64,000 nucleotides of DNA from an uncultured Gammaproteobacteria bacterium (GCA_964597575.1 CAZQXB010000001.1:206792-270791), one strand, 5' to 3'. Positions 5,590 through 43,209 are shown, numbered from the stretch's first letter. Translations and numbers: made by a program. The notes: generated from the sequence alone by a model not told the origin.

Positions 5590-7689
<2,100 letters not shown>

Positions 7690-7766
7690 CTAATGGTAGC
7701 ATGGCGACTAGGCATCTGCCAAGTTCTTTTACCCTCCCTTTTTCGAAGATGTGTTTGTGTGCTAGA

Positions 7767-8687: not shown

Positions 8688-8689
8688 GT

Positions 8690-9805: not shown

Positions 9806-9811
9806 GAAAAG

Positions 9812-26829: not shown

Positions 26830-27834
26830 ATGTTTCGTATGAAAAAAATTCGCATCGCAATTAACGGATTTGGCCGTATTGGTCGTCATGCGCTTCGGGC
26901 AAGTCGATCGCATAAGGGGCTTGAGGTTGTGGCAATTAACGATCTGACGGACACCAAGACGTTGGCGCATCTTTTAGAATTTGATACGGCTTATCCCCCT
27001 ATGGGAGAAGCAATTTCCTTTGATGATCATGCTATTATCGTTGGTAAGCAAAAAATAAAAGCCTTTGCAGAAAAAGATCCAGCGAAGCTTCCGTGGAAAG
27101 AGTTGAAGGTTGATGTCGTGCTTGAGTGCACGGGTCGATTTACCGATACCGTCGGCGCCGGCCTTCATATACAAGCAGGAGCCAAAAAGGTACTCCTATC
27201 GGCACCAGGAAAGGATGATATGCAAACCTTGGTCTTAGGGGTAAATGATGTGGGATACAAGGGGGATGGGGTGGTAAACAACGCTTCGTGTACGACAAAC
27301 TGTGCGGCACCCATTATGCGTGTGCTTGAATCAGCTTTTGGTGTAGAAAAGGCAATGCTCACAACGGTACACTCGTATACGGCCGATCAAAATTTACAAG
27401 ACGGTCCGCATCGTGATTTGCGACGCGCTCGGGCGGCTGCACAAAATATTGTACCAACGTCGACCGGTGCTGCTGTCGCAGTCACGGAAACGATCCCTTC
27501 TCTCAAAGAGAAGTTTGACGGTTTGGCAATTCGTGTGCCAACAATTACGGTTTCGCTTACAGACATTACCGCCGTTTTAAAAAAGTCCGTCACGATTGAG
27601 CAGATTAATGAAGCATTTACTAAAGCATCAAAGACAAGTTTGAAAGGAATTCTTGCTGTGACTGAAAAAGAGCTTGTCTCGAGTGATTTTATCGGTTCTT
27701 CGTACTCTGTTACGGTAGACCTTCCTCTCACCATGGTTGTGGGGGGTAATTTAGTAAAAGTTGTGGGCTGGTATGATAACGAGTGGGGATATGCCAATCG
27801 TTTGATCGAGATGGCTGAGGTGGTGGGGAAATAA
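26830..27834 (+). CDS. gap: Glyceraldehyde-3-phosphate dehydrogenase.
   Basis: IAINGFGRIGR (NAD-binding) and the active-site ASCTTNCAAP. Confidence 0.95.
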   Translation: MFRMKKIRIAINGFGRIGRHALRASRSHKGLEVVAINDLTDTKTLAHLLEFDTAYPPMGEAISFDDHAIIVGKQKIKAFAEKDPAKLPWKELKVDVVLECTGRFTDTVGAGLHIQAGAKKVLLSAPGKDDMQTLVLGVNDVGYKGDGVVNNASCTTNCAAPIMRVLESAFGVEKAMLTTVHSYTADQNLQDGPHRDLRRARAAAQNIVPTSTGAAVAVTETIPSLKEKFDGLAIRVPTITVSLTDITAVLKKSVTIEQINEAFTKASKTSLKGILAVTEKELVSSDFIGSSYSVTVDLPLTMVVGGNLVKVVGWYDNEWGYANRLIEMAEVVGK

Positions 27835-27836
27835 GT

Positions 27837-29075
27837 ATGAACAAAAAGGTTCTGCCTCAATCGATTCGTTCGGTTAAACATCTTCGTGGAAAGCGAATAT
27901 TTTTTCGCGTCGATGTTAATGTCCCTCTTTTATCGGGAAAAGTGGCTGACGATACTCGTCTCAGAGCCATACTTCCGACTCTCACCTGGCTTCAAAAAAA
28001 AGGTGCCATTATTTTTATTATCTCTCACCTTGGTCGCCCCGAAGGGCGTGCCGTCCCTTCCTTATCGCTTCGACCGGTAGCAATTCATCTTGAGATGCTT
28101 TTAGGAAAGCCAGTTAATTTCCTTAATACCAAAGATTGGTCAAAAGAAAATTTTGATTCAGCTGTAACAGAGGAAGATGTTCAATCGGCAAAGCCTGGGG
28201 ATATATTTTTGGCTGAAAATATTCGTTTTTCGAAAGAAGAAGAAAAGGGTGAGATAAATTTTGCCAAAAGAATAGCAAAGTTAGCTGATGTATATGTAAC
28301 AGACGCATTTGCCGCTGTCCATCGAAAAGATGTAAGTGTGGCGAAAGTTCCATTATACCTTCCTGCATACGCTGGTTTTCTTTTAGAAAAAGAAATAGTC
28401 GGACTTGAAACCTTGAACCAAAGCACAGCAGCTCCGTATGTGGCTTTGGTCGGAGGGATAAAGCTCGAAACAAAAATTCCTCTCATAAAAAAACTTCTTC
28501 GAGAAGCCGATGGGGTTCTTTTAGGGGGTGGCATTGTGAATACATGCCTCGTTGCTTTGGGATACAGTGTCGGTACTTCACTTTACGATAAAAATTTTGT
28601 TTCAGTCGCTAAAACTATTGCGCGCCATAAAAAAGTATTTCTCCCGATTGATCTTATCGTGGGCGATAAAAAGGGGGATAGGGTGCGCCATATTGATGTA
28701 CCTATGGAACCCACACGCCTTTGCTCCAAAAACGAGGCTATATTTGATATTGGTCCGAAAACCATCGCTGCGTATTCCACGCTTCTAAAAGATGCAAAGA
28801 GGGTGGTTTGGAATGGCGCAATGGGGTATTTCGAAATGCCGGTTTACGCACAAGGGACGCGTATGATCGCGCGCACTATTGGCCTTCTTCGAAAAAAACG
28901 TACATATACTGTTGTTGGTGGCGGGGAAACTGCGCAAGCGCTTGAACAAGTAGGGCACGCGAACGATGTGCGACTACTCTCAACCGGCGGAGGAGCCATG
29001 CTTTCGTATATTGCAGGTGAGAAACTTCCCGGCATTGAAGTGCTTCAGAAAAGAAAAAAAGAAACAAACAAGTAA
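27837..29075 (+). CDS. pgk: Phosphoglycerate kinase.
   Basis: RVDVNVPL N-terminal motif and full-length PGK domain order. The start lies 3 nt after the gap stop. Confidence 0.95.
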   Translation: MNKKVLPQSIRSVKHLRGKRIFFRVDVNVPLLSGKVADDTRLRAILPTLTWLQKKGAIIFIISHLGRPEGRAVPSLSLRPVAIHLEMLLGKPVNFLNTKDWSKENFDSAVTEEDVQSAKPGDIFLAENIRFSKEEEKGEINFAKRIAKLADVYVTDAFAAVHRKDVSVAKVPLYLPAYAGFLLEKEIVGLETLNQSTAAPYVALVGGIKLETKIPLIKKLLREADGVLLGGGIVNTCLVALGYSVGTSLYDKNFVSVAKTIARHKKVFLPIDLIVGDKKGDRVRHIDVPMEPTRLCSKNEAIFDIGPKTIAAYSTLLKDAKRVVWNGAMGYFEMPVYAQGTRMIARTIGLLRKKRTYTVVGGGETAQALEQVGHANDVRLLSTGGGAMLSYIAGEKLPGIEVLQKRKKETNK

Positions 29076-29131
29076 AAAGGTGCGTGTTGTGGTATACTGT
29101 AGGTACTTGTTTTCAACTTTATTTTTTTCGT

Positions 29132-29974
29132 ATGCCTGTCACACGTCCGGGAGGTCAAGGAGCTCCACTGCTCCACCATGTTCACCATGGAATTGTGGGT
29201 CATAATTTTGGTCGAAAAATTATTCTAACGTTAGTCGGTGTTCTACTTGCATACGGCATTGTTTTGTTTGGAACAATGATTCGTAACAACCTCCGTCAGT
29301 TTGAGGTGATTGGGTACGCTCCCCGACAAGAAAGAAGCATTCGAATCGAGTCTGAGGGTAAGGTGACGGTAAAGCCAGATATTGGTTTAACAACCATTGG
29401 CATGGTGGCTGAGGGTAAGACTGTGGCTGAAGCCCAAGAAAAGAATAGTAAAGTTATTACTGATTTAGTGACTAAAGCAAAGGCTTTGGGAATTGCTGAA
29501 GCGGATATCCAGACCGCAAATTATAATATTTATCCAAAATATCGCTATTCAGAAAAAGAAGGCCAGGTACTTGATGGATATCAGGTGAATCAAAGTGTCG
29601 CCGTAAAAATTCGTGATTTAACTAAGGCAAATAGCGTCATTGCCCTTGCTGGAGAAGTGGGAGCGAACACCGTAAGTGGGCTTGATTTTACAATTGATGA
29701 CCGTGATGCGTATGTCGATGCAGCTCGGAGGGTGGCCATGGAAAAATTAGGTGAAAAAGCCGCCATGCTTTCGGAAACCCTTGGGGTAGACTTAGTGAGC
29801 GTGGTATCCTATGATGAATATGAGCAGGGTCAAAACAACCCCTCACCCTTTTATCGTGCGTCAAACATTGCCGTTGAGATGGATGCTGCTGGCGGAATGA
29901 AGGCGTCAACTGGGGTTGAAACGGGAAGTACGGACGTTATTCTTCATATTGCTGTCGTATTCGAAATTCGCTAA
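29132..29974 (+). CDS. SIMPL/DUF541-domain protein (26-kDa periplasmic immunogenic protein family) with an N-terminal TM anchor.
   Basis: The domain layout and conserved stretches (GYQVNQSVAVKIRDL ... VSGLDFTIDD) fit SIMPL. The start was chosen at MPVTRPGG, downstream of a TGnTATACT element at 29088-29099. Confidence 0.65.
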   Translation: MPVTRPGGQGAPLLHHVHHGIVGHNFGRKIILTLVGVLLAYGIVLFGTMIRNNLRQFEVIGYAPRQERSIRIESEGKVTVKPDIGLTTIGMVAEGKTVAEAQEKNSKVITDLVTKAKALGIAEADIQTANYNIYPKYRYSEKEGQVLDGYQVNQSVAVKIRDLTKANSVIALAGEVGANTVSGLDFTIDDRDAYVDAARRVAMEKLGEKAAMLSETLGVDLVSVVSYDEYEQGQNNPSPFYRASNIAVEMDAAGGMKASTGVETGSTDVILHIAVVFEIR

Positions 29975-30004
29975 AAACAGTTTAAATTTTGATGTTTCGA
30001 TTGT

Positions 30005-33000
30005 ATGAGAGGTGAGTTTTTTGAGAAAGTTTTGGTGGGGTGCGCTATTGTCGTTTTCGGCAGCGTCTTTGCGTTCGGGGTAAACTCAACCCTTCGTGCT
30101 CAAACCGCATCATGCCCACTACAAACCTTACTTCCTTATAAAACCCCTCAAAGTTCCGCTGTCTACTACGTCTCAAAAGATTGTAAAAAAAGGCCAATTC
30201 GAAATCCTGCAGTTTACTTTTCTCACTTTTCCTCTTGGAGAGACGTTCGTGTAACGAGTCAAACCGTTTTGAATCGTATTCCCGATCATGAATTATCCTT
30301 TTTGCCCTGGGGACCGAGACGGGTTTATGAAAATGGATCCTTAGTAAAAACTGTCGACGACTCCCGAGTGTTTATTATTCTCGATGGAATTCGTCTGTAT
30401 CCGATTGAATCAGAATTCGCTTTTCGTTCTGTTTTGGGATACTCATTTGATCAGGTGGAGGATGTGACACGTAATGTCATTGACCGGTATATTGTTCAAT
30501 CGACCCCGATTGAATCTCTGGAGACCATCCCTCCTTTTCTGGTATTTAAGTACCCAAATGATGCGAAAGTGTACGCTCTTGAAAGAGATGGTGAGGATTT
30601 GGCGAAGCGGTATGTATCTTCTTTTGCTCAGATTCGTCAGAATAATTTTCGTGCAGATCGTATCGCTACAATCCCAACAACACGGACTTTTGTTGATTCG
30701 GTTGGGTCGGCGCCACCGGCGCGACCATTGCCGCAGCCAGCACCAGTACCTACACCAACACCTGTCCCTCCGCCTTCTCCTCTTGTTCAAATTGTACCTG
30801 TACCGGTCCCAGTACCAGTTCCCGTACCAGTTCCAACACCGGTACCGGGAGTCGTTCCTCCAGTCGTGCCACCGCCTGCAACTCCGCCACCTGTGGTTCC
30901 TCCTCCTGCAACCCCAACCCCAACTCCGGTACCCATCACGCCAAATCCACCACCACCTGCGCCAACTCCAAGCCCTTCGTCGGCCCTGTCAGCAGATCCA
31001 TCCCTTAGTGATGAATTTAATTCTGCCTCAACGCTCGGTAATTGGACGATGATGAACAACGACCTTCTTTCATCTGTAAATATTGGAACTACTGTTGCGG
31101 GGAGACTGACCATGGTTTCTGCGCCTATTGATCAAAATGGGTGGTATTCCGATCGGCAGGGCGCGTACATGTATAAAACTGTCTCTGGAAATTTTGTGGT
31201 GGAAATGTCTGGACGTGTGGGGAGAAACAGCGACATGAATTCGGTGCCTTCTGGAACATTTAAGGAGGCGGGTATCATTGTCCGAAACCCCTCTGGCCCA
31301 GTTCGTCAAAGCGGAAGTTTGACTACCGCTGTTGCTCCGGCAGGGCAGCAGAATTGGGTCATGTATAATATTGGAAAACAAATTTTTCAGTATGGACGTC
31401 AGGCGAAAAGTACCCGATCAGGAAGCCCAGATACGCTTTCCACGCTTTACTACACCGACACTCCTTCTGGAGTGCGAAACGGGAGAATTCGGGTTTGTCG
31501 CGTTGGAACAACGATATATTTCTACCACATGATGGAGAACGAGTCGACGTGGGTAGAGGAGGCGTTTGAGAGCACGACTGGGGTTGATGGTAACGGTCGT
31601 AATTTAGCAACACCTGGAATTAGTGGTAATGCAGTAGGGACTCCGATCCGTTTTGTTCGGAGTGATTTTCCAACGACACTTCAAGTAGGGCTCATTGCTG
31701 GAAACTGGGATAGTCCGTATGACGGGAGGTCCGAGTTTGATTATGTGCGCATTGCACCAGTAAGCACTCAAAGTGATTGTACCCGAGATATGCCCGCTGC
31801 TGGAACGACCACCCCACCCCCTCCACCACCAGCACCAACATCCCTCCCTGCGATTAGTGGCTTTGGTGACGAGTTTGCAGACGCAGCGACCTTATCACAG
31901 TGGTCAAACAGACAAACTGTTGAAGGGGGAGCTTCGCAAATTTCTACTTGGAATATTAATACCACAGCAGCTGGTGCCATGGTGCTTACTCCATCTGCTA
32001 ATGTTGGGTGGTTTAATTCTTTGGTCGGTCCATTTATTTATAAACAAATTTCCGGTGATTTCGTTGTTACAACGCAAGTTTTAGCAAGAAGTGTCGCTTC
32101 TGCCAACCAGGCTCCATCGCAAGTTTCGAATGCGGCTGGGCTTTTGGTTCGAAATCCAGCGAGCGCAAGCGGGATTCAGAACTGGGTGACGAATAATGTG
32201 GGAACACACAATGGGGCGGTAGTCGGAACGACAAATCTGAGTACTGTTAATAGCTTAACGAATTCAGTGACAGCGACGGCCGGTCAATTTTCCGTTGCTC
32301 TCCGTATTTGTCGCATCGGTTCAACTATTAGAACCTACATCTCTCAGGATAATGAGCAAAGCTGGACACTCACAAACACTATTACCCGATCTGATTTTCC
32401 GACCACCCTTCAGGTGGGTATGATGGCTGTGGCTGCAAGTTCGGTTGCAGACATTCGCGCAGAATTTGCCTATATTCGTTCCGCTGTTCCTTCATCTGTA
32501 AGTGACTGTACAGAAACAATTGATCCTGCGATTTCAACTGGCGGTACGACACCAACCCCGCCACCTCCGCCACCTGCTCCACCTACAACCCCGCCACCTC
32601 CGCCACCTGCTTCAGTTTCTGCGATTAGTGGTTTTGGCGATGAGTTTGCAGACGCTGGTACCTTGTCCCAGTGGTCGAACAGACAAACCGTAGAAGGTTC
32701 AGTGTCTCAACTTACCACATGGGACATCAACAACAGTGCCTCGGGTGCGATGGCGCTCACTCCTTCACAAGGGAATATTCCTTGGTATAACTCTTCTGTT
32801 GGTCCATTTATCTACAAACAAATTTCTGGAGATTTCGTGGTATCAACACAGGTATTGGCGCGAAGTTTGAATTCACCAAGTCAGGGGCCAACCCAGCAGT
32901 ACAATGCAGCTGGTTTGTTGGTGCGTACTCCTGCAAGTGCTGCAGGTGTTCAGAACTGGGTGACGAATAATGTGGGTAATGTGAATGGTGTTATTGGAGT

Positions 33001-34105
33001 CGTAAATATTAACACATCAAATTCCGTATCAGGGGCAATTGTAAGTCAAGACTCTTCATTCTCTGCTGCTCTCCGTATTTGTCGCATCGGTTCAACTATT
33101 AGAACCTACATCTCTCAGGATAATGAGCAAAGCTGGACACTCACAAACACTATTACCCGATCTGATTTTCCGACCACCCTTCAGGTGGGTATGATGGCTG
33201 TGGCTGCAAGCAGCGGAAATGATTTGCGCGCTGAATTTTCCTATATTCGAGCCGGCTCCCCGACATCTGTAACAGACTGTACCGGAACTTTAGGTACTGC
33301 TGTGGCTTCCTCTCCATCGCCTGCGCCTACACCTCCTCCACCGGCACCCCCACCTCCACCACCAGCCAACCCACCACCTCCACCCCCACCACCTCCATCA
33401 GGTCCAGCCGCAATTTCTGGGTTTAGTGATGAGTTTAATAGCAATAGTACGATTGGGAATTGGACAAGCCGTCAAGTAGCTGAGGGTAGTGCAAATCAGA
33501 TTGCAACCTGGAACATCAATTCAACGGTTTCGGGCAACATGGTACTCATACCGGCAACAAATAACATCGCTTGGTATAATGCGCTCGTGGGGCCATTTAT
33601 CTATAAAAATGTTACAGGAAACTTTGTCGTGTCTCTTCGGCTCAATGCGCATAGTTTGAGTAACTCCGCAGCAAGTCCCGGTCAGATATACAATGCCGGG
33701 GGGCTTTTAGTGAGAAATCCATCTTCGGCCGGAAGTGCTACACAAAATTGGATAGAAATGGCTATTGGAAATCACGAGACAGCAAACGGTTTGGTAACAG
33801 TAAACACGACAAATTCAGCTACGCCGAATCTTAGTCCCATCGCCGGAGCAACGAACACAAGTGTTCGCATATGTCGTATTGGTTCAACATTTACTTTGTA
33901 CACCTCAACAGATAACGATCAGACGTGGAATTTGAGCGCAACGTATAACCGGTTCGATCTTCCGACAACGCTTCAGGTGGGTATGGTTGTTGTGGCGGCA
34001 AATGCTTCTGGAAGTCCAGATGTGCAGGTTGATTTTGATTATATCCGAGGGGTTGTGCCAACCTCATCTTCCGACTGTACGGCAGTCATTGGAGTCCAAT
34101 CATAA
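30005..34105 (+). CDS. Giant secreted protein B (1366 aa), paralogue of A. It has a signal peptide, the shared N-terminal module (about 230 aa) and a (PV)n/Pro-rich linker, then four tandem ConA-like (DUF1349/GH43-C-like) beta-jellyroll repeats each ending in ...SDCT.
   Basis: The N-terminal region aligns by eye with protein A (CPLxxLxPYKTxxSSAVxYxSxDC ... LPWGPRRVxExGSLxKTVDDxRxF ... LVFKYP ... ADRIAT). The repeats begin (L/I)SxFxDEF and end (E/D)FxYIRxxxPxSxSDCT. Confidence 0.85.
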   Translation: MRGEFFEKVLVGCAIVVFGSVFAFGVNSTLRAQTASCPLQTLLPYKTPQSSAVYYVSKDCKKRPIRNPAVYFSHFSSWRDVRVTSQTVLNRIPDHELSFLPWGPRRVYENGSLVKTVDDSRVFIILDGIRLYPIESEFAFRSVLGYSFDQVEDVTRNVIDRYIVQSTPIESLETIPPFLVFKYPNDAKVYALERDGEDLAKRYVSSFAQIRQNNFRADRIATIPTTRTFVDSVGSAPPARPLPQPAPVPTPTPVPPPSPLVQIVPVPVPVPVPVPVPTPVPGVVPPVVPPPATPPPVVPPPATPTPTPVPITPNPPPPAPTPSPSSALSADPSLSDEFNSASTLGNWTMMNNDLLSSVNIGTTVAGRLTMVSAPIDQNGWYSDRQGAYMYKTVSGNFVVEMSGRVGRNSDMNSVPSGTFKEAGIIVRNPSGPVRQSGSLTTAVAPAGQQNWVMYNIGKQIFQYGRQAKSTRSGSPDTLSTLYYTDTPSGVRNGRIRVCRVGTTIYFYHMMENESTWVEEAFESTTGVDGNGRNLATPGISGNAVGTPIRFVRSDFPTTLQVGLIAGNWDSPYDGRSEFDYVRIAPVSTQSDCTRDMPAAGTTTPPPPPPAPTSLPAISGFGDEFADAATLSQWSNRQTVEGGASQISTWNINTTAAGAMVLTPSANVGWFNSLVGPFIYKQISGDFVVTTQVLARSVASANQAPSQVSNAAGLLVRNPASASGIQNWVTNNVGTHNGAVVGTTNLSTVNSLTNSVTATAGQFSVALRICRIGSTIRTYISQDNEQSWTLTNTITRSDFPTTLQVGMMAVAASSVADIRAEFAYIRSAVPSSVSDCTETIDPAISTGGTTPTPPPPPPAPPTTPPPPPPASVSAISGFGDEFADAGTLSQWSNRQTVEGSVSQLTTWDINNSASGAMALTPSQGNIPWYNSSVGPFIYKQISGDFVVSTQVLARSLNSPSQGPTQQYNAAGLLVRTPASAAGVQNWVTNNVGNVNGVIGVVNINTSNSVSGAIVSQDSSFSAALRICRIGSTIRTYISQDNEQSWTLTNTITRSDFPTTLQVGMMAVAASSGNDLRAEFSYIRAGSPTSVTDCTGTLGTAVASSPSPAPTPPPPAPPPPPPANPPPPPPPPPSGPAAISGFSDEFNSNSTIGNWTSRQVAEGSANQIATWNINSTVSGNMVLIPATNNIAWYNALVGPFIYKNVTGNFVVSLRLNAHSLSNSAASPGQIYNAGGLLVRNPSSAGSATQNWIEMAIGNHETANGLVTVNTTNSATPNLSPIAGATNTSVRICRIGSTFTLYTSTDNDQTWNLSATYNRFDLPTTLQVGMVVVAANASGSPDVQVDFDYIRGVVPTSSSDCTAVIGVQS
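32299..32440. repeat. First copy of a perfect 142-bp direct repeat inside protein B (repeat units 2 and 3 of the jellyroll array).
   Basis: ctccgtatttgtcgcatcggttcaactattagaacctacatctctcagg...atgatggctgtggctgcaag is identical to 33071-33212. Confidence 0.8.
33071..33212. repeat. Second copy of the perfect 142-bp direct repeat inside protein B.
   Basis: Identical to 32299-32440. The flanks are about 85% identical. Confidence 0.8.
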
Positions 34106-34130
34106 AAGACAGAAGATAAAGATAAGAAAA

Positions 34131-34158
34131 AAGGTGTTTCCCACCTTTTTTCTTTTTA
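34131..34158 (+). terminator. Rho-independent terminator after giant protein B.
   Basis: AAGGTG-tttcc-CACCTT hairpin followed by TTTTTCTTTTT. Confidence 0.5.
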
Positions 34159-34189
34159 TGTTATGATATGTTCAATAATATTCATATCT

Positions 34190-35434
34190 ATGGAAAAAAT
34201 AAAACGCATTGCAGCTCGTGAAATTCTTGATTCTCGTGGAAATCCAACCCTCGAAACAACTCTTTTTTTGGAAAACGGAGGTCGGGTTGCAGCCTCAGTG
34301 CCAAGTGGAGCGTCGACCGGTTCCTATGAAGCGCACGAGTTGCGTGATGGGGGTAAACGATATGGGGGAAAAGGGGTGCAAAAGGCAGTAGATCATGTGA
34401 ATCGGGTGATCGGACCAAAAATTATTGGTTTTTCTGTAACCGACCAGGCAGGTATTGATCAGGAACTACTCCACCTTGACGGGACGAAGGAAAAGAAGAG
34501 GCTCGGTGCCAATGCGCTTTTGTCGGTATCTCTTGCTGCGGCTCGGGGCGGAGCTCTTGCTGAAGGGCTACCACTGTATCGGTATTTACGCGATAAATCT
34601 GGTTTAAGGGAGCGAGGGTGGCGCATGCCACAGCCCATGATGAATGTGATTAATGGTGGCCGACACGCGACGAATGGTCTTTCGGTTCAAGAATTTATGA
34701 TTCTGCCAAAACATCGGAATGTGGTGGAGCAGGTGAGAATTGGTTCAGAAGTATTCCATGCGTTGTCGCGTCTGCTTGAGAAAAAACGATATGCTACTGG
34801 GGTTGGTGATGAAGGAGGGTTTGCGCCGGCATTTCCCGAAAATGAATCTGCGTTAAAGTTTCTCATGACTGCAGTGAAGGAGGCCGGCTATACTCCTGGT
34901 GTGCATGTGGTTTTTGCTCTTGATGTGGCGGCGTCTGAGTTCCATAGCCGACGCGGATATTTGTTTGAAGGGAAGCGTCCTATCTCTTCCGAAAAAATGC
35001 TTCAGGCCTTTTCTGTTTGGATGAAGAAATATCCTTTGGTTTCCATTGAAGATCCGTTTGCTGAGGATGATTGGTCTCCGTGGGTCGAAATGACGAAAAA
35101 ATATGGTTCGCGCCTTGCGATTGTTGGGGATGACCTGTTTGTTACGAATATCGATCGTTTAGGGGAGGGAATAAAACAAGGTGCTGCAAATACTATTTTA
35201 ATCAAACCAAATCAAATTGGAACATTAAGCGAAACATTTGCGACGATTCGACAGGCAAAATCGGCAGGGTATCGTGTCATTGTATCTCATCGTTCTGGGG
35301 AGACTGCTGATACGTTTATTGCGGATTTGGCGGTAGCGGTGCATGCGGACGGCTTAAAAGCCGGTTCACTGTCTCGGAGTGAGCGGGTAGAAAAGTATAA
35401 CCGACTGATGCAAATCTCCCTCGAAGTAGGTTAA
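34190..35434 (+). CDS. eno: Enolase (phosphopyruvate hydratase).
   Basis: MEKIKRIAAREILDSRGNPTLE... is a canonical enolase N-terminus, and the protein is full-length. The start was set at MEKIK. Confidence 0.95.
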   Translation: MEKIKRIAAREILDSRGNPTLETTLFLENGGRVAASVPSGASTGSYEAHELRDGGKRYGGKGVQKAVDHVNRVIGPKIIGFSVTDQAGIDQELLHLDGTKEKKRLGANALLSVSLAAARGGALAEGLPLYRYLRDKSGLRERGWRMPQPMMNVINGGRHATNGLSVQEFMILPKHRNVVEQVRIGSEVFHALSRLLEKKRYATGVGDEGGFAPAFPENESALKFLMTAVKEAGYTPGVHVVFALDVAASEFHSRRGYLFEGKRPISSEKMLQAFSVWMKKYPLVSIEDPFAEDDWSPWVEMTKKYGSRLAIVGDDLFVTNIDRLGEGIKQGAANTILIKPNQIGTLSETFATIRQAKSAGYRVIVSHRSGETADTFIADLAVAVHADGLKAGSLSRSERVEKYNRLMQISLEVG

Positions 35435-35518
35435 GAGGGTTTATGCACATACCTGTTAGGGGTATGTGTGCTATACTATATAAGCATTAGCTTCTTGATT
35501 TTTTTAGTAGATTTTTCT

Positions 35519-38500
35519 ATGGTTTTATTTCGGAAACCTTTTTTGCATATTTCATGGAGTCGTGTTGCGGCTCTGATATTTTTTCTTTCTATAGCGGGGG
35601 TTCTTTTTTTTGCACGCACTCTCCCTGCACTTGTTGCTGTAAATACATGGCCATTTGATACTGCTGGGGATTATACATACAATACTTCCCTTGTCGATGT
35701 AACCGGTGGAGTTGCTACACTTGTAGCAATAACCGGGGGTACCACGACCACAAATCATAATGATAACGGAAGCACAGAATTTGGTGGGGGGACTTCAACA
35801 AGCATCCAGTGGGTGAGTGCCTCAAGTTCACTCCGGATATCGTCGGGAGTAAGTGGTACTTTTACTTCGGTTGTTATTGATGCCGGAGTAACAACCACCT
35901 GGCAAACATTGGCGTGGACACCTTTTGCCCCTTACGGAAAAGAACTTGTTACAAGTACTGCGGAAACTCAGTATAGTTTTGGTAACTTTACAAATACCGG
36001 CGCGATAGCAGCATACTGGCGTTTGAATGAATCGAGTTGGAATGGTACGACAAACGAAGTTCAAAACGCTGTTTCAACGACCTTGCATGGCTCGCGTCGT
36101 GGGGGTGCGACGACAAGCGGTACGGCCCAATTTGGGCGTTCCGGGTCCTTTCCTTTAGCAAATACGTCGTATGTTCATGTAACAACTACAAACTTTTTGG
36201 CAGATTCTCAGTCGGGTACGATTATGGCGTGGATTTTTCCAACAAGTACCGGTGGGGGAACATTCCGTCATTTTTTTGCCTCAACTGATGAGTCGACATC
36301 CGATGGTAACGGCAATCGCGTTGTTTTGGGAATGCTTGATTCTGCAAATCAGTTATTATTCTACCATGCAGATGGTTCTGGTTTTGATTCAAATATCGGA
36401 AATACGGTGATGGCAGCAAATGAGTGGCATCATGTTGCTATTACTAATAGCGGGGCAGCAAACGGCTATCGTATGTATGTTGATGGGGTTCTGCAAACAC
36501 TAACTACTTTCGGTGGGGGAAATTCCGGTGATTGGTTTGCTGATGCAAATGGTTCTGGGGCCACAAATAGAGATAACATCACAATTGGTGGTATACGTCA
36601 TATTACACCTGACCTTTTGTTTGATGGTCTTGTTGATGAGTTGGTGATATTTTCACAAGAATTATCCACCTCAACGATTCGTGACCTTTACCGCCGTGGA
36701 GCACAGCGCTTGAGTTTTCAGGTTCGTTCCTGTGATGATAGTGCATGCAGCGGGGAAACGTTTACAGGCCCAGATGGCACGGCTGCGAGTTACTATACAG
36801 AATCTACCACCACAACGGTTGGCCTACCGTCGAAGAGTTTAATCACTCTCCCAGCTAATCGATATTTTCAGTATCAGACACTATTTAACACAACTTCAAC
36901 CGAACTTTCTCCTGGACTTCTTAGTGTTACAACTACAGGTTTTGCCACAACAACCTACTCCACAACAAGTCCAACGATTATAAATAATACGGGTTTCAGT
37001 TTTAGAAATATTTCTGCGTTTACACATTCACTCGGCGCTGGGAATGCTGGTACGGTGGAGTATCAGGTAGCTGTTGGGAACACCTCTACATTCTATTACT
37101 GGAATGGGAGCAATTGGGTTACAGCAAGCGCCGGATATCCAACGCACACCAATACGGTTTCAGAAGTAAATTCAAACATTATTCAGCTTGATACTGATGT
37201 CGGTGTTGGCACCTTCTACTTTCGCGCCTTTCTCGCTTCGAACGGAGCGCAGCAGGTTCAGCTTTCAGAGGTTGCGATCATGACAACGTCAACCATTTCT
37301 TTCGCGGCAAGCAGTGGTTCAGCAAGTGAAGGAAGTGGTACGAGTACGATTGTTGTTCAGCTTGATGAAGTTTCTTCGAGTACGATGACGGTTAATTATG
37401 CGGTTACCGGAGGAACAGCAACTGCGACAAGTGATTATGTTCTTGCAAGTGGTACTTCTACTATTGCGGCTGGAAGCACAACAACAAGTATTAGTATTCA
37501 GCTTGTCGATGACTCTGTTATCGACGGGAGTGAGACTGTCATCCTCACACTTACAAATGCGATCGGAGGGCTTCTTGGGTCAACCACAACATTTACCTTA
37601 ACCATTACCGATAATGATACTGCAGGGGTGACACTCAATCCTTCTTCTGTTTCTGTAACAGAAGGTGGTTCGGATACTTCGTATACTATTGTTTTGAATA
37701 CTCAGCCATCGAGTACTGTAAGTATTACACTTGCCACCTCAACAGGCGATATTTCTTTGTCGACTACCTCAATTACATTTACTACAAGTACTTGGAATTC
37801 TGCGCAGACGATTACGGTTACTCCTGTAAATGATAGTGATGTTGAGGGTACACACTCTGATACTATCACCCATACCGCAAGTTCAACCGATTCGAATTAT
37901 CATGCCATTTCGATTTCTAATATGTCGGTGAGTGTTACTGATGATGATGCATCATCTTCTTCTGGAGGCGGAGGCGGAGGCGGAGGTGGTGGTTCATTTA
38001 TTCCTACGACACCAGCACCTCAGGGCTTTGGCGGAACTGGTAATGGGGAAATTCGAGCAGGGGAGGGAGCGGCGACAAACCTCCCTGTTTCCGAAGGTTC
38101 CTTCATTGATGCTACTAATCGAGCGGTAACAATATCGTTTGCTGTGGAAGGTGCGACTCGCATGGCGCTTTCAAACCAACCTGATTTTGCGCTGGCTACT
38201 CAAGAGCCGTATCGTCCGAGCGTCATTTGGGACGTGTGTGGGAATTCGACCGTATGTCCTGAGGGTATTTATACTCTGTATGCACGATTTTATAACAGCT
38301 ACGGAGTTTCTGGAAATGTTATTTCCCGCCAAATTCGATATCGACCAACTTCAAGCTCGGTTACCCTATCACCTAGCTTAGTTCGACTTTTGAAGTCTGC
38401 TGATGACCCTAAAGTGTTCGAGGTTATTAATGGTGAAAAGCGCTGGCTTGTAAACGAACAGGCGTTTCTTTCGCGAGGGTATTCATGGGGGGCGATTGAG

Positions 38501-38836
38501 GTGGTTCCCTCAAGTGTTCTTCGGGCGTTGCCAGATGCGGGCCAAATTTCAACTCCTGCATTATTACCACCTACAAATAGGTCAATTTCACCCGCGTTCC
38601 GTTTCTCTTCATATCTTTCGTTTGGCTCGCAGGGAGCGGCCGTTCGAAGCTTGCAGGTTCTTCTTGTGGATTTAGGGTACTTCCCTAGAACCGTTCAGCC
38701 AAATGGTGTATTTGGTCCAACTACCCGTGGGGCCGTACAGGCGTTTCAGCGTGCTAACGGTCTTACTCCAATTGGTGTTGTTGGTCCGCAGACTCGCGCG
38801 CTCCTCAACGGAATTTTAAGTGCAAGAGGGGAATAG
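35519..38836 (+). CDS. Giant cell-envelope protein C with an N-terminal TM anchor and a LamG-like (ConA-like) jellyroll domain. Calx-beta domains, a poly-Gly linker, a domain of unknown fold and a C-terminal peptidoglycan-binding (PG_binding_1-like) domain follow.
   Basis: LamG_3 signature ...WHHVAITNSGAANGYRMYVDGVLQ...DELVIFSQELS. Calx-beta signatures (TISFAASSGSASEGSGTSTIVVQLDEVSSSTMTVNYAVTGGTATATSDYVLASGT...; ITDNDTAGV...). G(n) run. C-terminal ...GAAVRSLQVLLVDLGYFP...GVFGPTTRGAVQAFQRANGLTPIGVVGPQTRALL. Confidence 0.8.
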   Translation: MVLFRKPFLHISWSRVAALIFFLSIAGVLFFARTLPALVAVNTWPFDTAGDYTYNTSLVDVTGGVATLVAITGGTTTTNHNDNGSTEFGGGTSTSIQWVSASSSLRISSGVSGTFTSVVIDAGVTTTWQTLAWTPFAPYGKELVTSTAETQYSFGNFTNTGAIAAYWRLNESSWNGTTNEVQNAVSTTLHGSRRGGATTSGTAQFGRSGSFPLANTSYVHVTTTNFLADSQSGTIMAWIFPTSTGGGTFRHFFASTDESTSDGNGNRVVLGMLDSANQLLFYHADGSGFDSNIGNTVMAANEWHHVAITNSGAANGYRMYVDGVLQTLTTFGGGNSGDWFADANGSGATNRDNITIGGIRHITPDLLFDGLVDELVIFSQELSTSTIRDLYRRGAQRLSFQVRSCDDSACSGETFTGPDGTAASYYTESTTTTVGLPSKSLITLPANRYFQYQTLFNTTSTELSPGLLSVTTTGFATTTYSTTSPTIINNTGFSFRNISAFTHSLGAGNAGTVEYQVAVGNTSTFYYWNGSNWVTASAGYPTHTNTVSEVNSNIIQLDTDVGVGTFYFRAFLASNGAQQVQLSEVAIMTTSTISFAASSGSASEGSGTSTIVVQLDEVSSSTMTVNYAVTGGTATATSDYVLASGTSTIAAGSTTTSISIQLVDDSVIDGSETVILTLTNAIGGLLGSTTTFTLTITDNDTAGVTLNPSSVSVTEGGSDTSYTIVLNTQPSSTVSITLATSTGDISLSTTSITFTTSTWNSAQTITVTPVNDSDVEGTHSDTITHTASSTDSNYHAISISNMSVSVTDDDASSSSGGGGGGGGGGSFIPTTPAPQGFGGTGNGEIRAGEGAATNLPVSEGSFIDATNRAVTISFAVEGATRMALSNQPDFALATQEPYRPSVIWDVCGNSTVCPEGIYTLYARFYNSYGVSGNVISRQIRYRPTSSSVTLSPSLVRLLKSADDPKVFEVINGEKRWLVNEQAFLSRGYSWGAIEVVPSSVLRALPDAGQISTPALLPPTNRSISPAFRFSSYLSFGSQGAAVRSLQVLLVDLGYFPRTVQPNGVFGPTTRGAVQAFQRANGLTPIGVVGPQTRALLNGILSARGE

Positions 38837-38852
38837 CTGAATGTTTTATCGC

Positions 38853-38888
38853 AACAGAAAAGAACTCTATATAGAGTTCTTTTCTGTT
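38853..38888. terminator. Long perfect palindrome / bidirectional terminator candidate after protein C.
   Basis: AACAGAAAAGAACTCTAT|ATAGAGTTCTTTTCTGTT (18-bp arms). Confidence 0.5.
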
Positions 38889-38938
38889 GCCGGATGATAT
38901 GCTTGTACGTTATACTGTGGCATAGTCCCTATAAAATT

Positions 38939-40507
38939 ATGAATACCCTTTTTCCTCGAAAAACTGCCCTCCTTATTTTGGATGGTTTTGGTCTTGCCCC
39001 ATTTGATCGCCCAGGAAATGCTATTCGCCCGGATACTGCTCCTCATATTTTTGAGTATAAGAAAAAGTACACGGCCACGGAATTAAATACCACTGGGGCA
39101 ACAGTGGGTCTCTTTCCAAATCAAAAGGGAAATTCCGAGGCCGGACATTTAACTATCGGGACTGGTCGAATTGTAAAACAAGATTTGGTACGAATTTCTG
39201 AAGCGATTAGTAATGGTACTTTTTTTAAGAATGAAGCCTTTAAACAGGCTACTCATCACGCCAAAAAATATCATACGGCGGCACACATTTTCGCCCTCCT
39301 TACTGATGGAAACAGTGCTCATGCATACCCAGAACATATTTTTGCCACACTTGAGTATCTTCGCCGCGAAGAAATTCGTGAAGTGTACCTGCATCTTTTT
39401 ACCGATGGTCGAGACAGCTCTCCGCATAATGCTCTGGTGTTTCTTCAGGCGCTTCGGGGTCATATGGTTGGGGGGGAGAAAATCGCGACAATGATGGGTC
39501 GCTACTATGGTATGGATCGAAATAAGACATGGTCGCGTACGAAAGAAGCTTATGAAGCTATTGTTTTTGGTAAAGGGGGTCATGTTGCCAAAAGTGCCGA
39601 GGAGGCGATAACTCTTGCCTACAGTCGAGGTGAGACCGACGAGTATATTACCCCAACCGTTATTGTTGATGACGAATCAAAACCTATCGGAACCGTAGAT
39701 GATAACGATGTTATTTTTTTTACAAATGCACGCAGCGATCGGGCAAGACAATTGACTAAAGCCTTTGTGCAAGAGGATTTTCAGAAACTAAATCCAGGAG
39801 CTTTTCGACGCTCTCGGGTACCAAAAAATATCCGTTTTGTTGCCATGACTGATTTCGGACCGGATTTGCCAGGAGTGTTCACTGCTTTTCCAAGTCCAGA
39901 TGTACCAAATGCTTTGGCTAAAGCAATTGGAGAGAGCTATCGCCAATTATTTATTTCTGAAACAGAAAAGTATGCTCATGTAACATACTTTATTAATGGT
40001 GGGTACGCTGAACCAATAAACGGGGAAAAACGAGAATTGGTTGCCTCGTCTCCAATTTTATCGTATGCAGATTTACCGGAAATGAATGCGGCAGTGCTTG
40101 CTGATCGAATTGCAAGTGCATTTAAAGAAGATGAATATGATTTTGTGTGTACTAATTTTCCTAATGCTGATATGGTGGGGCATACGGGAAATCTTTCAGC
40201 AGCCGAAACTGCGGTTCGGGCCTTGGATAACGCCGTGGCTTTGGTGGTTGAAACGACTCTCTCGCTCGGTGGTCAAGTAATGATTGTTGCCGACCATGGA
40301 AATGCTGAAGAGATGATTAATCTGGCCACTGGGGATATTATGACTGAACACACCAGAAACCTGGTTCCTTGTATTATTATCGGGAAAGGGTTTGAGAAGA
40401 TGCCGATAAAACCCGCAGGAACATTGGCTGATGTTGCTCCAACCTTGCTTCACATGATGGGACTTCCTCAACCCGAGGAAATGACAGGAAAATCATTATT
40501 ATTGTAA
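38939..40507 (+). CDS. gpmI: 2,3-bisphosphoglycerate-independent phosphoglycerate mutase (iPGM), copy 1.
   Basis: ALLILDGFG ... NSEAGHLTIGTGRIV ... iPGM phosphatase and transferase domain motifs. The start was set at MNTLFPRK. Confidence 0.9.
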   Translation: MNTLFPRKTALLILDGFGLAPFDRPGNAIRPDTAPHIFEYKKKYTATELNTTGATVGLFPNQKGNSEAGHLTIGTGRIVKQDLVRISEAISNGTFFKNEAFKQATHHAKKYHTAAHIFALLTDGNSAHAYPEHIFATLEYLRREEIREVYLHLFTDGRDSSPHNALVFLQALRGHMVGGEKIATMMGRYYGMDRNKTWSRTKEAYEAIVFGKGGHVAKSAEEAITLAYSRGETDEYITPTVIVDDESKPIGTVDDNDVIFFTNARSDRARQLTKAFVQEDFQKLNPGAFRRSRVPKNIRFVAMTDFGPDLPGVFTAFPSPDVPNALAKAIGESYRQLFISETEKYAHVTYFINGGYAEPINGEKRELVASSPILSYADLPEMNAAVLADRIASAFKEDEYDFVCTNFPNADMVGHTGNLSAAETAVRALDNAVALVVETTLSLGGQVMIVADHGNAEEMINLATGDIMTEHTRNLVPCIIIGKGFEKMPIKPAGTLADVAPTLLHMMGLPQPEEMTGKSLLL

Positions 40508-40511
40508 TGAT

Positions 40512-42083
40512 ATGGCTCGACCAAAACCAGTGGTGCTCGCAATTCTGGATGGCTGGGGAGTTGCGCCTGACGCTGAAGGTAACGCCATTACTCGTGCGCG
40601 ATTACCACATATTAGTCAGTTTATCCGCGAATACCCAGTCATGACCCTCTTTGCTTCTGGTACAGAGGTCGGTCTTTCTTTTGGAGAGATGGGAAATTCT
40701 GAGGTGGGACATTTAAATATCGGTGCTGGTCGTGTGTACTACCAAACATTTCCGCGCATTCAAAAAAGTATCTTAGACGATTCTTTTTTTACCAATAAGG
40801 CTTTTCTTGAAACGATCGAGCAAGTGAAGGCAAAAAAAACAGCACTTCATATCATGGGACTTGTTTCTCCTGGAAATGTGCATGCAAGCGATAAACATTG
40901 TTTAGCTCTTTTGAAATTGGCCAAACAGCACCGAATCAAAAATGTCTTCGTTCATGTATTTCTTGATGGGCGCGATACGGTATATAACGGGGGCAAAGAA
41001 TTTGTGGCCGCTCTTGAAACAGAAATGCGTCGCATGGGGGTCGGAAAAATTGCCAGCATCTCTGGACGATTTTATGCGATGGATCGCGATAATCGATGGG
41101 AGCGTATCGAGCAGGCCTACCGAGCTATTGCTGAAGGGAAGGGGCCTCTTATGCCAAGTGCGGCTTTGGCCATTGAATCTTCTTATGAGCGCGGAGTATA
41201 CGACGAAGAATTTGTTCCTGTTGTTATTGGCAAAGACGGTCCTACTGGCAAGGTTTCTTCTGGGGATGGCATTATTTTTTTCAATTTTCGCCCTGATCGT
41301 GCGCGAGAACTCACCAAAGCTTTCGTATTGCCGAGTTTTGCAAAATTTGAACGAACGTATATTGAAAATTTGGCTTTTGTAACCATGACCGAGTATGAAA
41401 AAGAAATTCCGGTCTCGGTGGCATATCCGCCACAAATCATTCATGGGTGTTTAGCCGAAGTGATCAGTGCTGCTGGTTTGAAACAGCTTCATGTCGCTGA
41501 AACAGAAAAGTATGCTCACGTTACTTTCTTTTTAAATGGAACGGTTGAAGAACCATTTCCTGGAGAAACGCGTCAAATTGTTCCGTCGCCCAGAGTAGCC
41601 TCGTACGACCAGGCACCAGAAATGGCCGCGGCTGACATTACGAAAATGGTCGTTGCGGCAATTGAGGGAGGAGAGTACGATGTTATTATTTGTAATTTCG
41701 CGAATGCAGACATGGTTGGGCATACGGGAAATTTTGAAGCCTCAGTAAAAGCGTGTGAGGCGATTGATCGATCGCTCGGTCTCATTGCCGATCATGTGCT
41801 TGCCAAAGACGGTGTGTTATTGATTACAGCAGACCACGGAAATGCGGAAGAAACGGTGAATTTGCACACAGGGACGATGGATAAAGAACACAGTAATAAC
41901 CCTGTTCCATTCATGATTATTGGGCACCGTTTTCGAGGCGAGGTAGGGCCGGCAGGTGATCCAATTAATGGTGACATCAGTTTACTTTCACCCGTTGGTA
42001 TTTTGTCTGATGTCGCGCCAACCATGTTGTCTATTTTGGGAATCAACCAACCTCCGGAAATGACGGGTCGGCCACTTATTTAG
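40512..42083 (+). CDS. gpmI: 2,3-bisphosphoglycerate-independent phosphoglycerate mutase (iPGM), copy 2, a diverged tandem paralogue.
   Basis: VVLAILDGWGVAP ... NSEVGHLNIGAGRVYYQ ... SETEKYAHVTFF ... ADMVGHTGN. It lies 5 nt after copy 1. Confidence 0.9.
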   Translation: MARPKPVVLAILDGWGVAPDAEGNAITRARLPHISQFIREYPVMTLFASGTEVGLSFGEMGNSEVGHLNIGAGRVYYQTFPRIQKSILDDSFFTNKAFLETIEQVKAKKTALHIMGLVSPGNVHASDKHCLALLKLAKQHRIKNVFVHVFLDGRDTVYNGGKEFVAALETEMRRMGVGKIASISGRFYAMDRDNRWERIEQAYRAIAEGKGPLMPSAALAIESSYERGVYDEEFVPVVIGKDGPTGKVSSGDGIIFFNFRPDRARELTKAFVLPSFAKFERTYIENLAFVTMTEYEKEIPVSVAYPPQIIHGCLAEVISAAGLKQLHVAETEKYAHVTFFLNGTVEEPFPGETRQIVPSPRVASYDQAPEMAAADITKMVVAAIEGGEYDVIICNFANADMVGHTGNFEASVKACEAIDRSLGLIADHVLAKDGVLLITADHGNAEETVNLHTGTMDKEHSNNPVPFMIIGHRFRGEVGPAGDPINGDISLLSPVGILSDVAPTMLSILGINQPPEMTGRPLI

Positions 42084-43209
42084 CGAGAAGGGGGAGTACC
42101 AATGCTTCCGCATCTTTTAAGTTGGTGTGCGATAAAAGCAGTCGCGCCTGGTGGGCATTGCCCTCTGGGTGAAGGCTCTGTAAAAGTTGTTTTGCATCAT
42201 CAGTCGAGCGAGTTGTTCGAAGAATAACATGAACCAATTGCGGAGTATTTGGGTCCTCAATAAAAAGAAGGATCTTTTTTGCTTCTGGCGCATTGGTAAT
42301 AAGCTCATCAATACTCTCAAGAGCATCAGCGACATTGGAACCACTGCGAGTTAATTCATCCCGCGTAACCGTGCTCGTAACGGTTTGGGTGCTGGGGTCG
42401 TGAGCCAGGTGTGAGAGGATACTTCCCCACAATTTAAGCGTGCTAATACGTTTGGTGTAAAAAAGCTGACGCACAATATGCCCTCGATCCGCTCCGTTTT
42501 CAATAAGTTCGCTCGCGGTGCGCAACGTAGCCGGAGCCAGGGTTCCCGATTTAAAACTGCGGGTGGCGGCAATAATACCTGTAAGGAGCATGGTGGCTGT
42601 TGTTTCGTGAATTGGTTCTTTGCTTATATGTTTAAATAATTCGTAGCACACCTCAGCGATTGTCGTTTTTGTAATATCAATAATATTGATGTGTCCGTAG
42701 CGGGTATGTTCGGTATTTCGGTCAATCGCGATGACCGGAGTTTCCTGAAACAGCGAAGTGTTGTTTTTGTAGGTATCATGAAGACTGTCAAGCGTTGGGG
42801 CGCCAAGCACAAACACCACATCGTAGAGAAATGGAGATTGCGCAGTTGTTACCAGGTGATGATCAATCGTACCTTGTTTTGGTGTAACCATGATCCGAAG
42901 CTGGTCATCTTTGACGTCGTAGCTTAAATCCTTTACTCCGTGGTCGCGCACATTGATCGTGATGACAAATTTTTGCTGAGGGGGGAGAAAAGGTTTGATG
43001 GTGTCACTTTGGGGTAAAAAGTGATAGGGATGATCTTTCGGAAGATCGGTTCCAACAATGTCAATTTGTCGACCTGGACGAGCAAAAAAGCGCGCACAGG
43101 CTAAGGCGCTACCAAGGCCGTCCCCACCACTTTCCCCAGGAAAAACAATCAGCACTCTTGCGGCAGAGGCCATTAGGTGGGCAACTTGTTCATATGCGGA
43201 AATGGCCAT
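42076..43209 (-). CDS. DHH-superfamily phosphoesterase (NrnA-like oligoribonuclease / pAp phosphatase family).
   Basis: The N-terminal VLIVFPGESGGDGLGSALA resembles the NrnA hhhxHxxPDxDxxGS motif, with a DHH motif (GTIDHH) and a C-terminal DHHA1-like region. The 3' end overlaps the gpmI copy 2 stop by 8 nt. Confidence 0.6.
   Translation of the reverse strand: MAISAYEQVAHLMASAARVLIVFPGESGGDGLGSALACARFFARPGRQIDIVGTDLPKDHPYHFLPQSDTIKPFLPPQQKFVITINVRDHGVKDLSYDVKDDQLRIMVTPKQGTIDHHLVTTAQSPFLYDVVFVLGAPTLDSLHDTYKNNTSLFQETPVIAIDRNTEHTRYGHINIIDITKTTIAEVCYELFKHISKEPIHETTATMLLTGIIAATRSFKSGTLAPATLRTASELIENGADRGHIVRQLFYTKRISTLKLWGSILSHLAHDPSTQTVTSTVTRDELTRSGSNVADALESIDELITNAPEAKKILLFIEDPNTPQLVHVILRTTRSTDDAKQLLQSLHPEGNAHQARLLLSHTNLKDAEALVLPLLAK

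Follow-up and report, generated by a model that had tools for sequence, protein, structure and literature searches.

Why would a bacterium with a very small genome keep two genes for one glycolytic step side by side, and why are genes for giant surface proteins set among its glycolytic genes? Both questions are raised by a stretch of DNA of 64,000 nucleotides (GCA_964597575.1, CAZQXB010000001.1:206792-270791; hereafter the window), deposited as an uncultured Gammaproteobacteria bacterium. As an earlier note on this DNA had described, eight genes on the + strand, gap, pgk, a SIMPL/DUF541 gene, giant B, eno, giant C and two gpmI paralogues, form a string between positions 26830 and 42083. The paralogues encode cofactor-independent phosphoglycerate mutases (iPGMs), here called iPGM1 and iPGM2, and the two peptides by which they had been compared, SEAGHLTIGTGRIV and SEVGHLNIGAGRVYYQ, were each found in the window. 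Both enzymes are predicted to have kept the canonical chemistry, and they would go back to an old tandem duplication that was probably retained as a pair of differing isozymes, while the giant genes are recent and local additions to the string.

Catalytic residues of the paired mutases

The two gpmI paralogues are the last genes of the string.

38939-40507, + strand: iPGM1 (gpmI paralogue), 522 aa, in a reading frame open from 38894; TIGR01307, 498.8 bits

40512-42083, + strand: iPGM2 (gpmI paralogue), 523 aa, beginning 4 nt past iPGM1; TIGR01307, 630.3 bits

As for all eight genes of the string, these assignments were based on profile matches to Pfam and NCBIfam, and both proteins passed the equivalog cutoff of TIGR01307 (330.65 bits). 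The exact 522-aa iPGM1 protein has a database record (P0001), traced only to a Logan contig of 14.5 kb with the same sequence as the window (run SRR13355620), and a look-up of the exact iPGM2 protein gave none. With 42% identity to each other (BLASTP, E = 3e-135; 42-44% across the comparisons made), the two copies are indeed paralogous and substantially diverged. Each has a Metalloenzyme domain (PF01676; residues 23-525 in iPGM1 and 5-512 in iPGM2) interrupted by iPGM_N (PF06415; residues 101-321 and 83-297, respectively), the same architecture as in the bacterial iPGMs (GpmI/GpmM) of Geobacillus stearothermophilus (1EJJ) and Bacillus anthracis (2IFY). iPGM1 matched 1EJJ over its full length (residues 4-509, E = 5e-123, 43% identity), as did iPGM2 (E = 7.5e-143, 47% identity), which also matched 2IFY with E ~1e-143. 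Given such full-length matches to solved iPGMs (E = 1e-123 to 1e-143), the fold of both copies is fixed.

When aligned to 1EJJ, iPGM1 and iPGM2 both kept 16 of 16 functional residues, namely the serine nucleophile S62, the di-manganese ligands D12, D403, H407, D444, H445, and H462, and the phosphoglycerate-binding residues H66, H123, R153, D154, R185, R191, R261, R264, and K336, all identical to those of the Geobacillus enzyme. The list corresponds to the Bacillus-type iPGM structures of Jedrzejas et al. (2000), and it was backed independently by an alignment of 110 iPGMs (34 of iPGM1 type, 31 partners of iPGM2 type, and 45 others), across which the same columns were near-invariant. All 34 iPGM1-type sequences were invariant at the 16 positions, as were the 31 partners bar one alignment gap at H462, and the sole change among the 45 other iPGMs was threonine for S62 in three of them.

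This check of the active site does not bear out the suggestion that one copy might have altered specificity, for example a phosphopentomutase-like function, because catalytic, manganese, and substrate residues are all kept in both copies and phosphopentomutase models scored the window iPGMs at only 20-49 bits against cutoffs of 254-341. Phosphopentomutase (DeoB) belongs to the alkaline-phosphatase superfamily and shares the metal-binding core, the source of these weak NCBIfam matches, whereas the window proteins have iPGM_N and all of the phosphoglycerate-binding arginines. Two other identities for iPGM1 were rejected: that of a phosphopentomutase, on model scores and residue conservation, and that of a pseudoenzyme, on scores and the full conservation of functional residues. 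Given these residues and the equivalog scores, there was no sign of lost or altered chemistry in either copy, and we predict that both are most likely active mutases interconverting 3-phosphoglycerate (3PG) and 2-phosphoglycerate (2PG).

Few columns set the iPGM1 clade apart from all other iPGMs (n = 76). At V64A, adjacent in sequence to S62 and H66, alanine was present in only 1 of the 76, and at V122A in none of them, the latter change being accompanied by a one-residue insertion (GNS-AH) beside H123. The clade further carries D192N beside R191, the motif NLRSDRA in place of NFRPDRA (F259L and P262S, with P262S between R261 and R264), a loss of G177, an insertion of NPG near residue 279, and the substitutions P310S and E349A. 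Compared with known bacterial iPGMs, iPGM1 is distinguished by these clade-specific second-shell substitutions and small indels. Such a signature could go with adjusted kinetics or with a change in the preferred substrate, and sub- or neofunctionalisation of iPGM1 is possible on the strength of these residues.

Age and retention of the pair

One genome per GTDB species was scanned, which yielded 80 loci that were mapped with the window proteins; counted loci were assigned to types by tblastn score, and relatedness was judged from synteny and identity rather than from record titles. Orthologues of iPGM1 are numerous (61-77% identity), and those that bear a name belong to Candidatus Magasanikbacteria, a member of the Candidate Phyla Radiation (CPR). 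Several loci with clear CPR synteny and iPGM1 identities of 60-66% (L001, L003, L008-L011, L013, and L015) are titled 'uncultured Gammaproteobacteria' or 'Candidatus Udaeobacter', titles that look mislabelled.

An iPGM2-type gene lay directly 3' of the iPGM1-type gene in 33 of 35 non-redundant loci, with the aligned segments 5-502 nt apart, or in 34 of 35 if the beginning of a downstream iPGM at the contig end of L029 is counted as well; L022 was the only one of the 35 without an iPGM2-type gene within 10 kb. The enolase gene eno lay 5' of the pair in 32 of 33 loci. Pair-bearing loci are titled Magasanik-, Falkow-, or Kerfeldbacteria or generically Patescibacteria, and two loci left out of the 35 on tblastn score, from Uhrbacteria (L035) and Doudnabacteria (L056), also have two adjoining iPGMs, the upstream copies of which fall in the extended iPGM1 clade. 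A single iPGM was present in Microgenomates-type, Saccharibacteria, Moranbacteria, Dojkabacteria, and Bacillota loci. Among other arrangements in the locus set, L034 has two tandem eno genes before the iPGM pair (7207-9809), and an Actinomycetota contig (L061, 4307-7704) carries an independent tandem iPGM duplicate.

In a midpoint-rooted neighbour-joining tree of 113 sequences, the upstream, iPGM1-type copies formed one clade with 100/100 bootstrap support (99 and 98 for its Magasanik subclades), and the iPGM1 and iPGM2 clades mirrored each other in their internal branching. The inter-genome distances of the two copies were correlated (r = 0.87), with the iPGM1 distance being the larger in 93% of 435 genome pairs (iPGM1/iPGM2 ratio 1.2), and iPGM1 was also further from the outgroups (0.96 vs. 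0.83 for iPGM2). Between the window and its nearest relatives, dN/dS was below 0.1 for both copies, a value to be read as an upper-bound indicator only because dS was saturated, and dN was lower for iPGM1 (0.18-0.19) than for eno (0.26). Synteny, clade structure, co-divergence, and constraint together point to a tandem duplication of great age whose two products have been passed on together, both under strong constraint. The earlier note had itself regarded canonical residues in both copies, combined with ancient duplication across the lineage, as evidence against its view of an altered enzyme, and the residue check and the phylogeny returned exactly this combination.

That two iPGMs in a minimal genome are unexpected, as also remarked before, agrees with a published survey in which duplicate bacterial-type iPGMs were detected in 4 of 702 genomes: one a pseudogene, one a recent duplicate (90% similarity), and two ascribed to lateral gene transfer, with phosphoglycerate mutase paralogues occurring mostly in large genomes (Foster et al., 2010; PMC2964296). 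The premise of a minimal genome is itself plausible, since the exact iPGM1 protein is recorded on a contig of 913,817 bp, in line with a genome of roughly 0.9 Mb, and the named orthologues of iPGM1 are Candidatus Magasanikbacteria. Bacterial iPGMs usually occur as one copy, whereas here two diverged copies stand in tandem and, in contrast to the four surveyed duplicates, they are old (42-44% identity), adjacent, both intact, and present in 33-34 of 35 loci of small-genome CPR lineages. Our search of the literature on two iPGMs in CPR bacteria or Magasanikbacteria found no paper describing the pair. Most metabolic pathways have been lost in CPR bacteria, for which lower glycolysis is among the few remaining sources of ATP. 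The keeping, in many of their lineages, of two intact, adjacent iPGMs under selection of enolase strength runs counter to the general rule that phosphoglycerate mutase paralogues are found in large genomes, and it would mean that two different enzymes are needed at the 3PG/2PG step. Given the near-universal retention of the pair, the two copies appear to be non-redundant.

We propose that the string represents a vertically inherited lower-glycolysis neighbourhood of Magasanikbacteria-like CPR bacteria, with the conserved order gap-pgk-SIMPL-eno-gpmI-gpmI followed by a convergent DHH-like gene, valS, and tyrS. Both gpmI genes would go back to a single, ancient tandem duplication that several CPR orders inherited from a common ancestor, after which iPGM2 would have remained a slow, ancestral-like copy and iPGM1 would have become the derived one, diverging asymmetrically first and coming under strong purifying selection afterwards. 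Retention as subfunctionalised isozymes, which might differ in kinetics, metal or pH dependence, or expression while the chemistry stayed unchanged, is in our judgment the probable reason why both copies persist.

Some observations weigh against this account. The conserved changes beside functional residues could reflect a changed substrate preference, beyond kinetics. Furthermore, with midpoint rooting all other sampled iPGMs group to the exclusion of the iPGM1 clade, a position that could be due to faster evolution since the duplication or else to an older or foreign source of iPGM1. This tree is based on neighbour joining only, with 113 sequences.

One alternative is that iPGM1 was neofunctionalised, keeping the phosphoserine and di-metal chemistry while acting on another phospho-acid or a sugar phosphate, or mainly as a phosphatase, so that iPGM2 alone would carry the glycolytic flux. 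The asymmetric divergence of iPGM1 (1.2 times faster and further from the outgroups) is consistent with such a change, as are the rarity elsewhere of the alanines at V64A (1/76) and V122A (0/76), the accompanying D192N, P262S, E349A, and indels, and the keeping of both copies in tiny genomes though bacterial iPGM paralogues are rare. However, all contacts of the Bacillus enzyme with the carboxylate and phosphate of glycerate are invariant in iPGM1, which reached 499 bits with the equivalog model but 20-49 bits with phosphopentomutase models. Moreover, the only iPGM adjoining eno in L022 is of iPGM1 type, and L042 has a single iPGM next to eno, which belongs to the extended iPGM1 clade, although in that locus the two types are not told apart by tblastn score; these two loci suggest that the iPGM1 type can serve glycolysis. 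On balance, we consider neofunctionalisation unlikely.

It is likewise doubtful, though worth stating, that the iPGM1 clade constitutes a distinct and undescribed enzyme subfamily, always found with a canonical gpmI across a class-level CPR group and having a different job, which may be another phospho-acid substrate, a phosphatase or phosphotransferase activity, or obligate cooperation with iPGM2. If true, the reduced central metabolism of these episymbionts would contain a step that has so far gone unrecognised.

A lateral origin, in which iPGM1 came from a lineage not sampled here and was placed next to a gpmI gene already present, is in our view very improbable. Midpoint rooting does put the iPGM1 clade sister to all other sampled iPGMs and away from the CPR iPGM2 sequences, and lateral transfer is the origin that Foster et al. 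give for two of their four iPGM duplicates. Yet no closer relative outside the CPR was found, the best matches (Bacillota and similar) being 40-47% identical to iPGM1 and no closer to it than iPGM2 is, and faster evolution following the duplication accounts equally well for the long stem branch. The exact, co-oriented adjacency and the tight co-divergence of the copies also stand against a transfer, and any such event would predate the radiation of these orders.

Giant genes and probable transcript structure of the string

The remaining features of the string, all on the same strand as the iPGM pair, are listed here in order.

26830-27834, + strand: gap, type I glyceraldehyde-3-phosphate dehydrogenase (Pfam Gp_dh_N and Gp_dh_C; TIGR01534, 411.6 bits, cutoff 367.2)

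27837-29075, + strand: pgk, phosphoglycerate kinase (PF00162, E = 1.8e-111)

29084-29974, + strand: SIMPL/DUF541 protein with an N-terminal membrane segment (PF04402, E = 4.8e-41)

30005-34105, + strand: giant B, 1366 aa (PF07081, DUF1349, in three stretches)

34124-34154, + strand: hairpin resembling an intrinsic terminator at the giant B/eno junction (terminator scan and fold)

34163-35434, + strand: eno, enolase (TIGR01060, 545 bits)

35445-35469, + strand: weaker hairpin at the eno/giant C junction (fold z = -1.9)

35468-38836, + strand: giant C, open reading frame (ORF) of 1122 aa (Pfam Laminin_G_3, Calx-beta, and PG_binding_1)

38851-38890, + strand: 18-bp perfect hairpin 3' of giant C (fold)

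38906-38919, + strand: −10-like box TACGTTATACTGTG 5' of iPGM1 (columns invariant in the window, L084, and L082)

Translation of gap probably starts at the methionine of MKKIRIAING (26839), that of eno at 34190, giving 414 aa, and that of giant C at 35519. The eno orthologues in relatives were called at 414-415 aa, which fits the start at 34190. As regards the moonlighting surface display of enolase or GAPDH that the earlier note had envisaged, neither protein has an N-terminal extension after this correction. A fused triosephosphate isomerase (TIM) domain is absent from pgk, as a bifunctional PGK/TIM model matched in the PGK part only.

In the central glycolytic operon of Firmicutes, as in Bacillus subtilis, the order is gapA-pgk-tpiA-gpmI-eno, and Bacillota-type loci in our set have gap-pgk-(gap)-iPGM-eno. 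The string likewise clusters lower-glycolysis genes in one orientation, but it differs in that eno precedes gpmI, tpi is missing, SIMPL is interposed between pgk and eno, two gpmI genes are present, and lineage-specific insertions and internal terminators divide it into several likely transcription units. The SIMPL/DUF541 gene is the sole non-glycolytic gene stably kept in the string, found after pgk and before eno in at least 13 related loci (L006-L009, L014-L021, and L084), and its linkage is far more conserved than that of the giant genes.

Giant B has an N-terminal hydrophobic segment, proline-rich linkers, and repeated DUF1349 modules of the ConA-like fold, and giant C combines a membrane anchor or N-terminal hydrophobic segment with Laminin_G_3, Calx-beta, and a C-terminal PG_binding_1 domain. 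Apart from the window itself, its two nearest relatives (L082/L083 and L084/L085; iPGM1 77% and iPGM2 82% identical to the window) were the only ones with giants within the string. In L084/L085 both giants have orthologues in the positions that they hold in the window (giant B 63%, giant C up to 68%), and in L082/L083 giant C has one (59%); before eno, L082 carries another giant of at least 1739 aa, with Big_7 repeats and one terminal DUF1349-like module. Giants were missing from the string in L001-L013, the 13 species-level loci of Magasanikbacteria type closest to the window, and in the sister group L014-L021, where SIMPL, eno, and iPGM1 adjoin or lie less than 0.7 kb apart, except for gaps of 2.7 kb between SIMPL and eno in L014 and of 2 kb between eno and iPGM1 in L004, neither of which contains a large ORF. 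The earlier note had also named a lack of surface-gene linkage elsewhere among the observations that would speak against it; the wider relatives did lack such linkage, and only the two nearest ones keep the giants in place. Other lineages have other insertions: genes for AsnRS/AspRS, ScpA, and a DD-carboxypeptidase between gap and pgk in L015, L016, L019, and L021, and an ADP-forming acetyl-CoA synthetase gene between eno and iPGM1 in L031 (7942-9984). In L006, a giant with fn3/Ig domains lies 5' of gap.

The hairpin at 34124-34154, with a 13-bp stem and a U-tract, was the top hit of the terminator scan, and its fold (z = -4.3) was matched in stability by 0 of 200 shuffles; a TATGAT −10-like box lies 3' of it, before eno. 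At the same junction, L084 has a terminator of different sequence, and at its eno/giant C junction it has a hairpin much stronger than that of the window (z = -5.7). The giant C/iPGM1 region (38837-38938) folds at -37.2 kcal/mol (z = -7.3), and both L082 and L084 have canonical terminators of unrelated sequence at this junction. Upstream of iPGM1, a promoter scan match was located at 38887-38916, and the −10-like box TACGnTATAnTGTG was invariant in the window, L084, and L082. The hairpins at 34124-34154 and 38851-38890 and the conserved −10-like boxes argue against a single transcript, and the string would likely comprise four transcription units: gap-pgk-SIMPL-giant B, eno, giant C, and iPGM1-iPGM2. 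Nor was membership of the string conserved across relatives as in one operon, giants being confined to the window and L082-L085. A shared promoter motif, TATGATAT, 5' of eno and iPGM1 was considered and rejected, as it was not enriched (2 hits vs. 1.4 expected).

Two observations caution against this division. Total scan counts were not above those of shuffles (32 vs. 27.8 ± 5.5 and 27 vs. 20 ± 4.2), and of the promoter and terminator scan results we used only individually strong, positionally conserved hairpins. In addition, gap, pgk, SIMPL, and giant B follow one another at 2-30 nt without an intervening hairpin, and giant B may be co-transcribed with gap and pgk.

The giants would have entered the string at two junctions, in a recent common ancestor of the window genome and its two nearest relatives; their presence is a local, lineage-specific, recently fixed insertion with its own signals. 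The earlier note had read the interleaving as physical coupling and co-regulation of host-sugar capture by lectin-like surface proteins with sugar catabolism. Several features are in line with that idea: the ConA-like domains of the giants (DUF1349 and Laminin_G_3), the position of giant B only 30 nt past SIMPL without an intervening hairpin, and an interleaved order kept in two species-level relatives (iPGM1 ~77% identical), with giant C in both and giant B in L084. Against it, the strings of all wider relatives lack giants, in three species strong hairpins or terminators and −10-like boxes stand between each giant and the next glycolytic gene (eno after giant B, iPGM1 after giant C), and the giant before eno in L082 has a different architecture with Big_7 repeats. 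Giants also occur away from glycolytic genes: a giant-B paralogue of 1693 aa with DUF1349 modules (9880-14961, + strand; 43% identical over 787 aa) sits between ftsW/rodA and rplY (ribosomal protein L25), and a fourth giant (59032-63357, − strand) has glycosyltransferase genes next to it. The four ORFs longer than 1100 aa make up ~26% of the bases of the window, and a crude hypergeometric estimate of the chance that at least two of these four would land in 6 of the 44 gene junctions gave P = 0.083; the interleaving is not clearly beyond chance. We consider the coupling highly unlikely, and with it goes a tempting story of co-regulated surface lectins and glycolysis, leaving the giants as local insertions with their own terminators. 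What is noteworthy is rather that two diverged iPGMs have been kept for so long, and almost without exception, in genomes of very small size, which implies non-redundant roles. The giant family as a whole appears scattered among housekeeping genes.

Neighbouring genes

The string is followed by a gene on the opposite strand.

42076-43209, − strand: DHH-like gene, 377 aa (sub-threshold DHH match, E = 1e-4)

This gene is convergent with iPGM2 and overlaps its last 8 nt, and it occupies the same position in nearly all Magasanik-type loci (35-54% identity). Four aminoacyl-tRNA synthetase genes, for TrpRS, ValRS, TyrRS, and ArgRS, are found in the 26 kb around the string (24448-50166), and the order valS-tyrS-argS 3' of the DHH-like gene is kept in the nearest relatives. 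TyrRS identity to the window is bimodal, with 85% in L082, 71% in L009, and 65% in L012 against ~36-50% in other syntenic loci, whereas iPGM and eno identities vary smoothly over the same loci; this pattern hints at two TyrRS types or a replacement.

The ValRS gene, two genes 3' of iPGM2 (44083-47244, + strand), encodes a 191-aa histidine-phosphatase insert resembling cofactor-dependent phosphoglycerate mutase (PF00300, E = 3.4e-37). The insert (~45505-46077) lies within the catalytic core, between GWPE and FHPTS, at a site corresponding to residue 473 of Thermus ValRS, and the HIGH and KMSKS motifs of the synthetase as well as the RHG/SHG motifs of the phosphatase look intact. It was also present in L082/L083 (45% identity) and L009 (42%), was absent from 13 other related loci spanning the insertion site, and has as its nearest relatives free-standing CPR histidine phosphatases of ~188 aa. 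A literature search for a ValRS-histidine-phosphatase insertion found none.

Upstream of the string, RNase J (22218-24140, + strand) has an arginine- and glycine-rich N-terminal extension of ~90-100 aa before its metallo-beta-lactamase domain, the first Pfam match beginning at residue 102.

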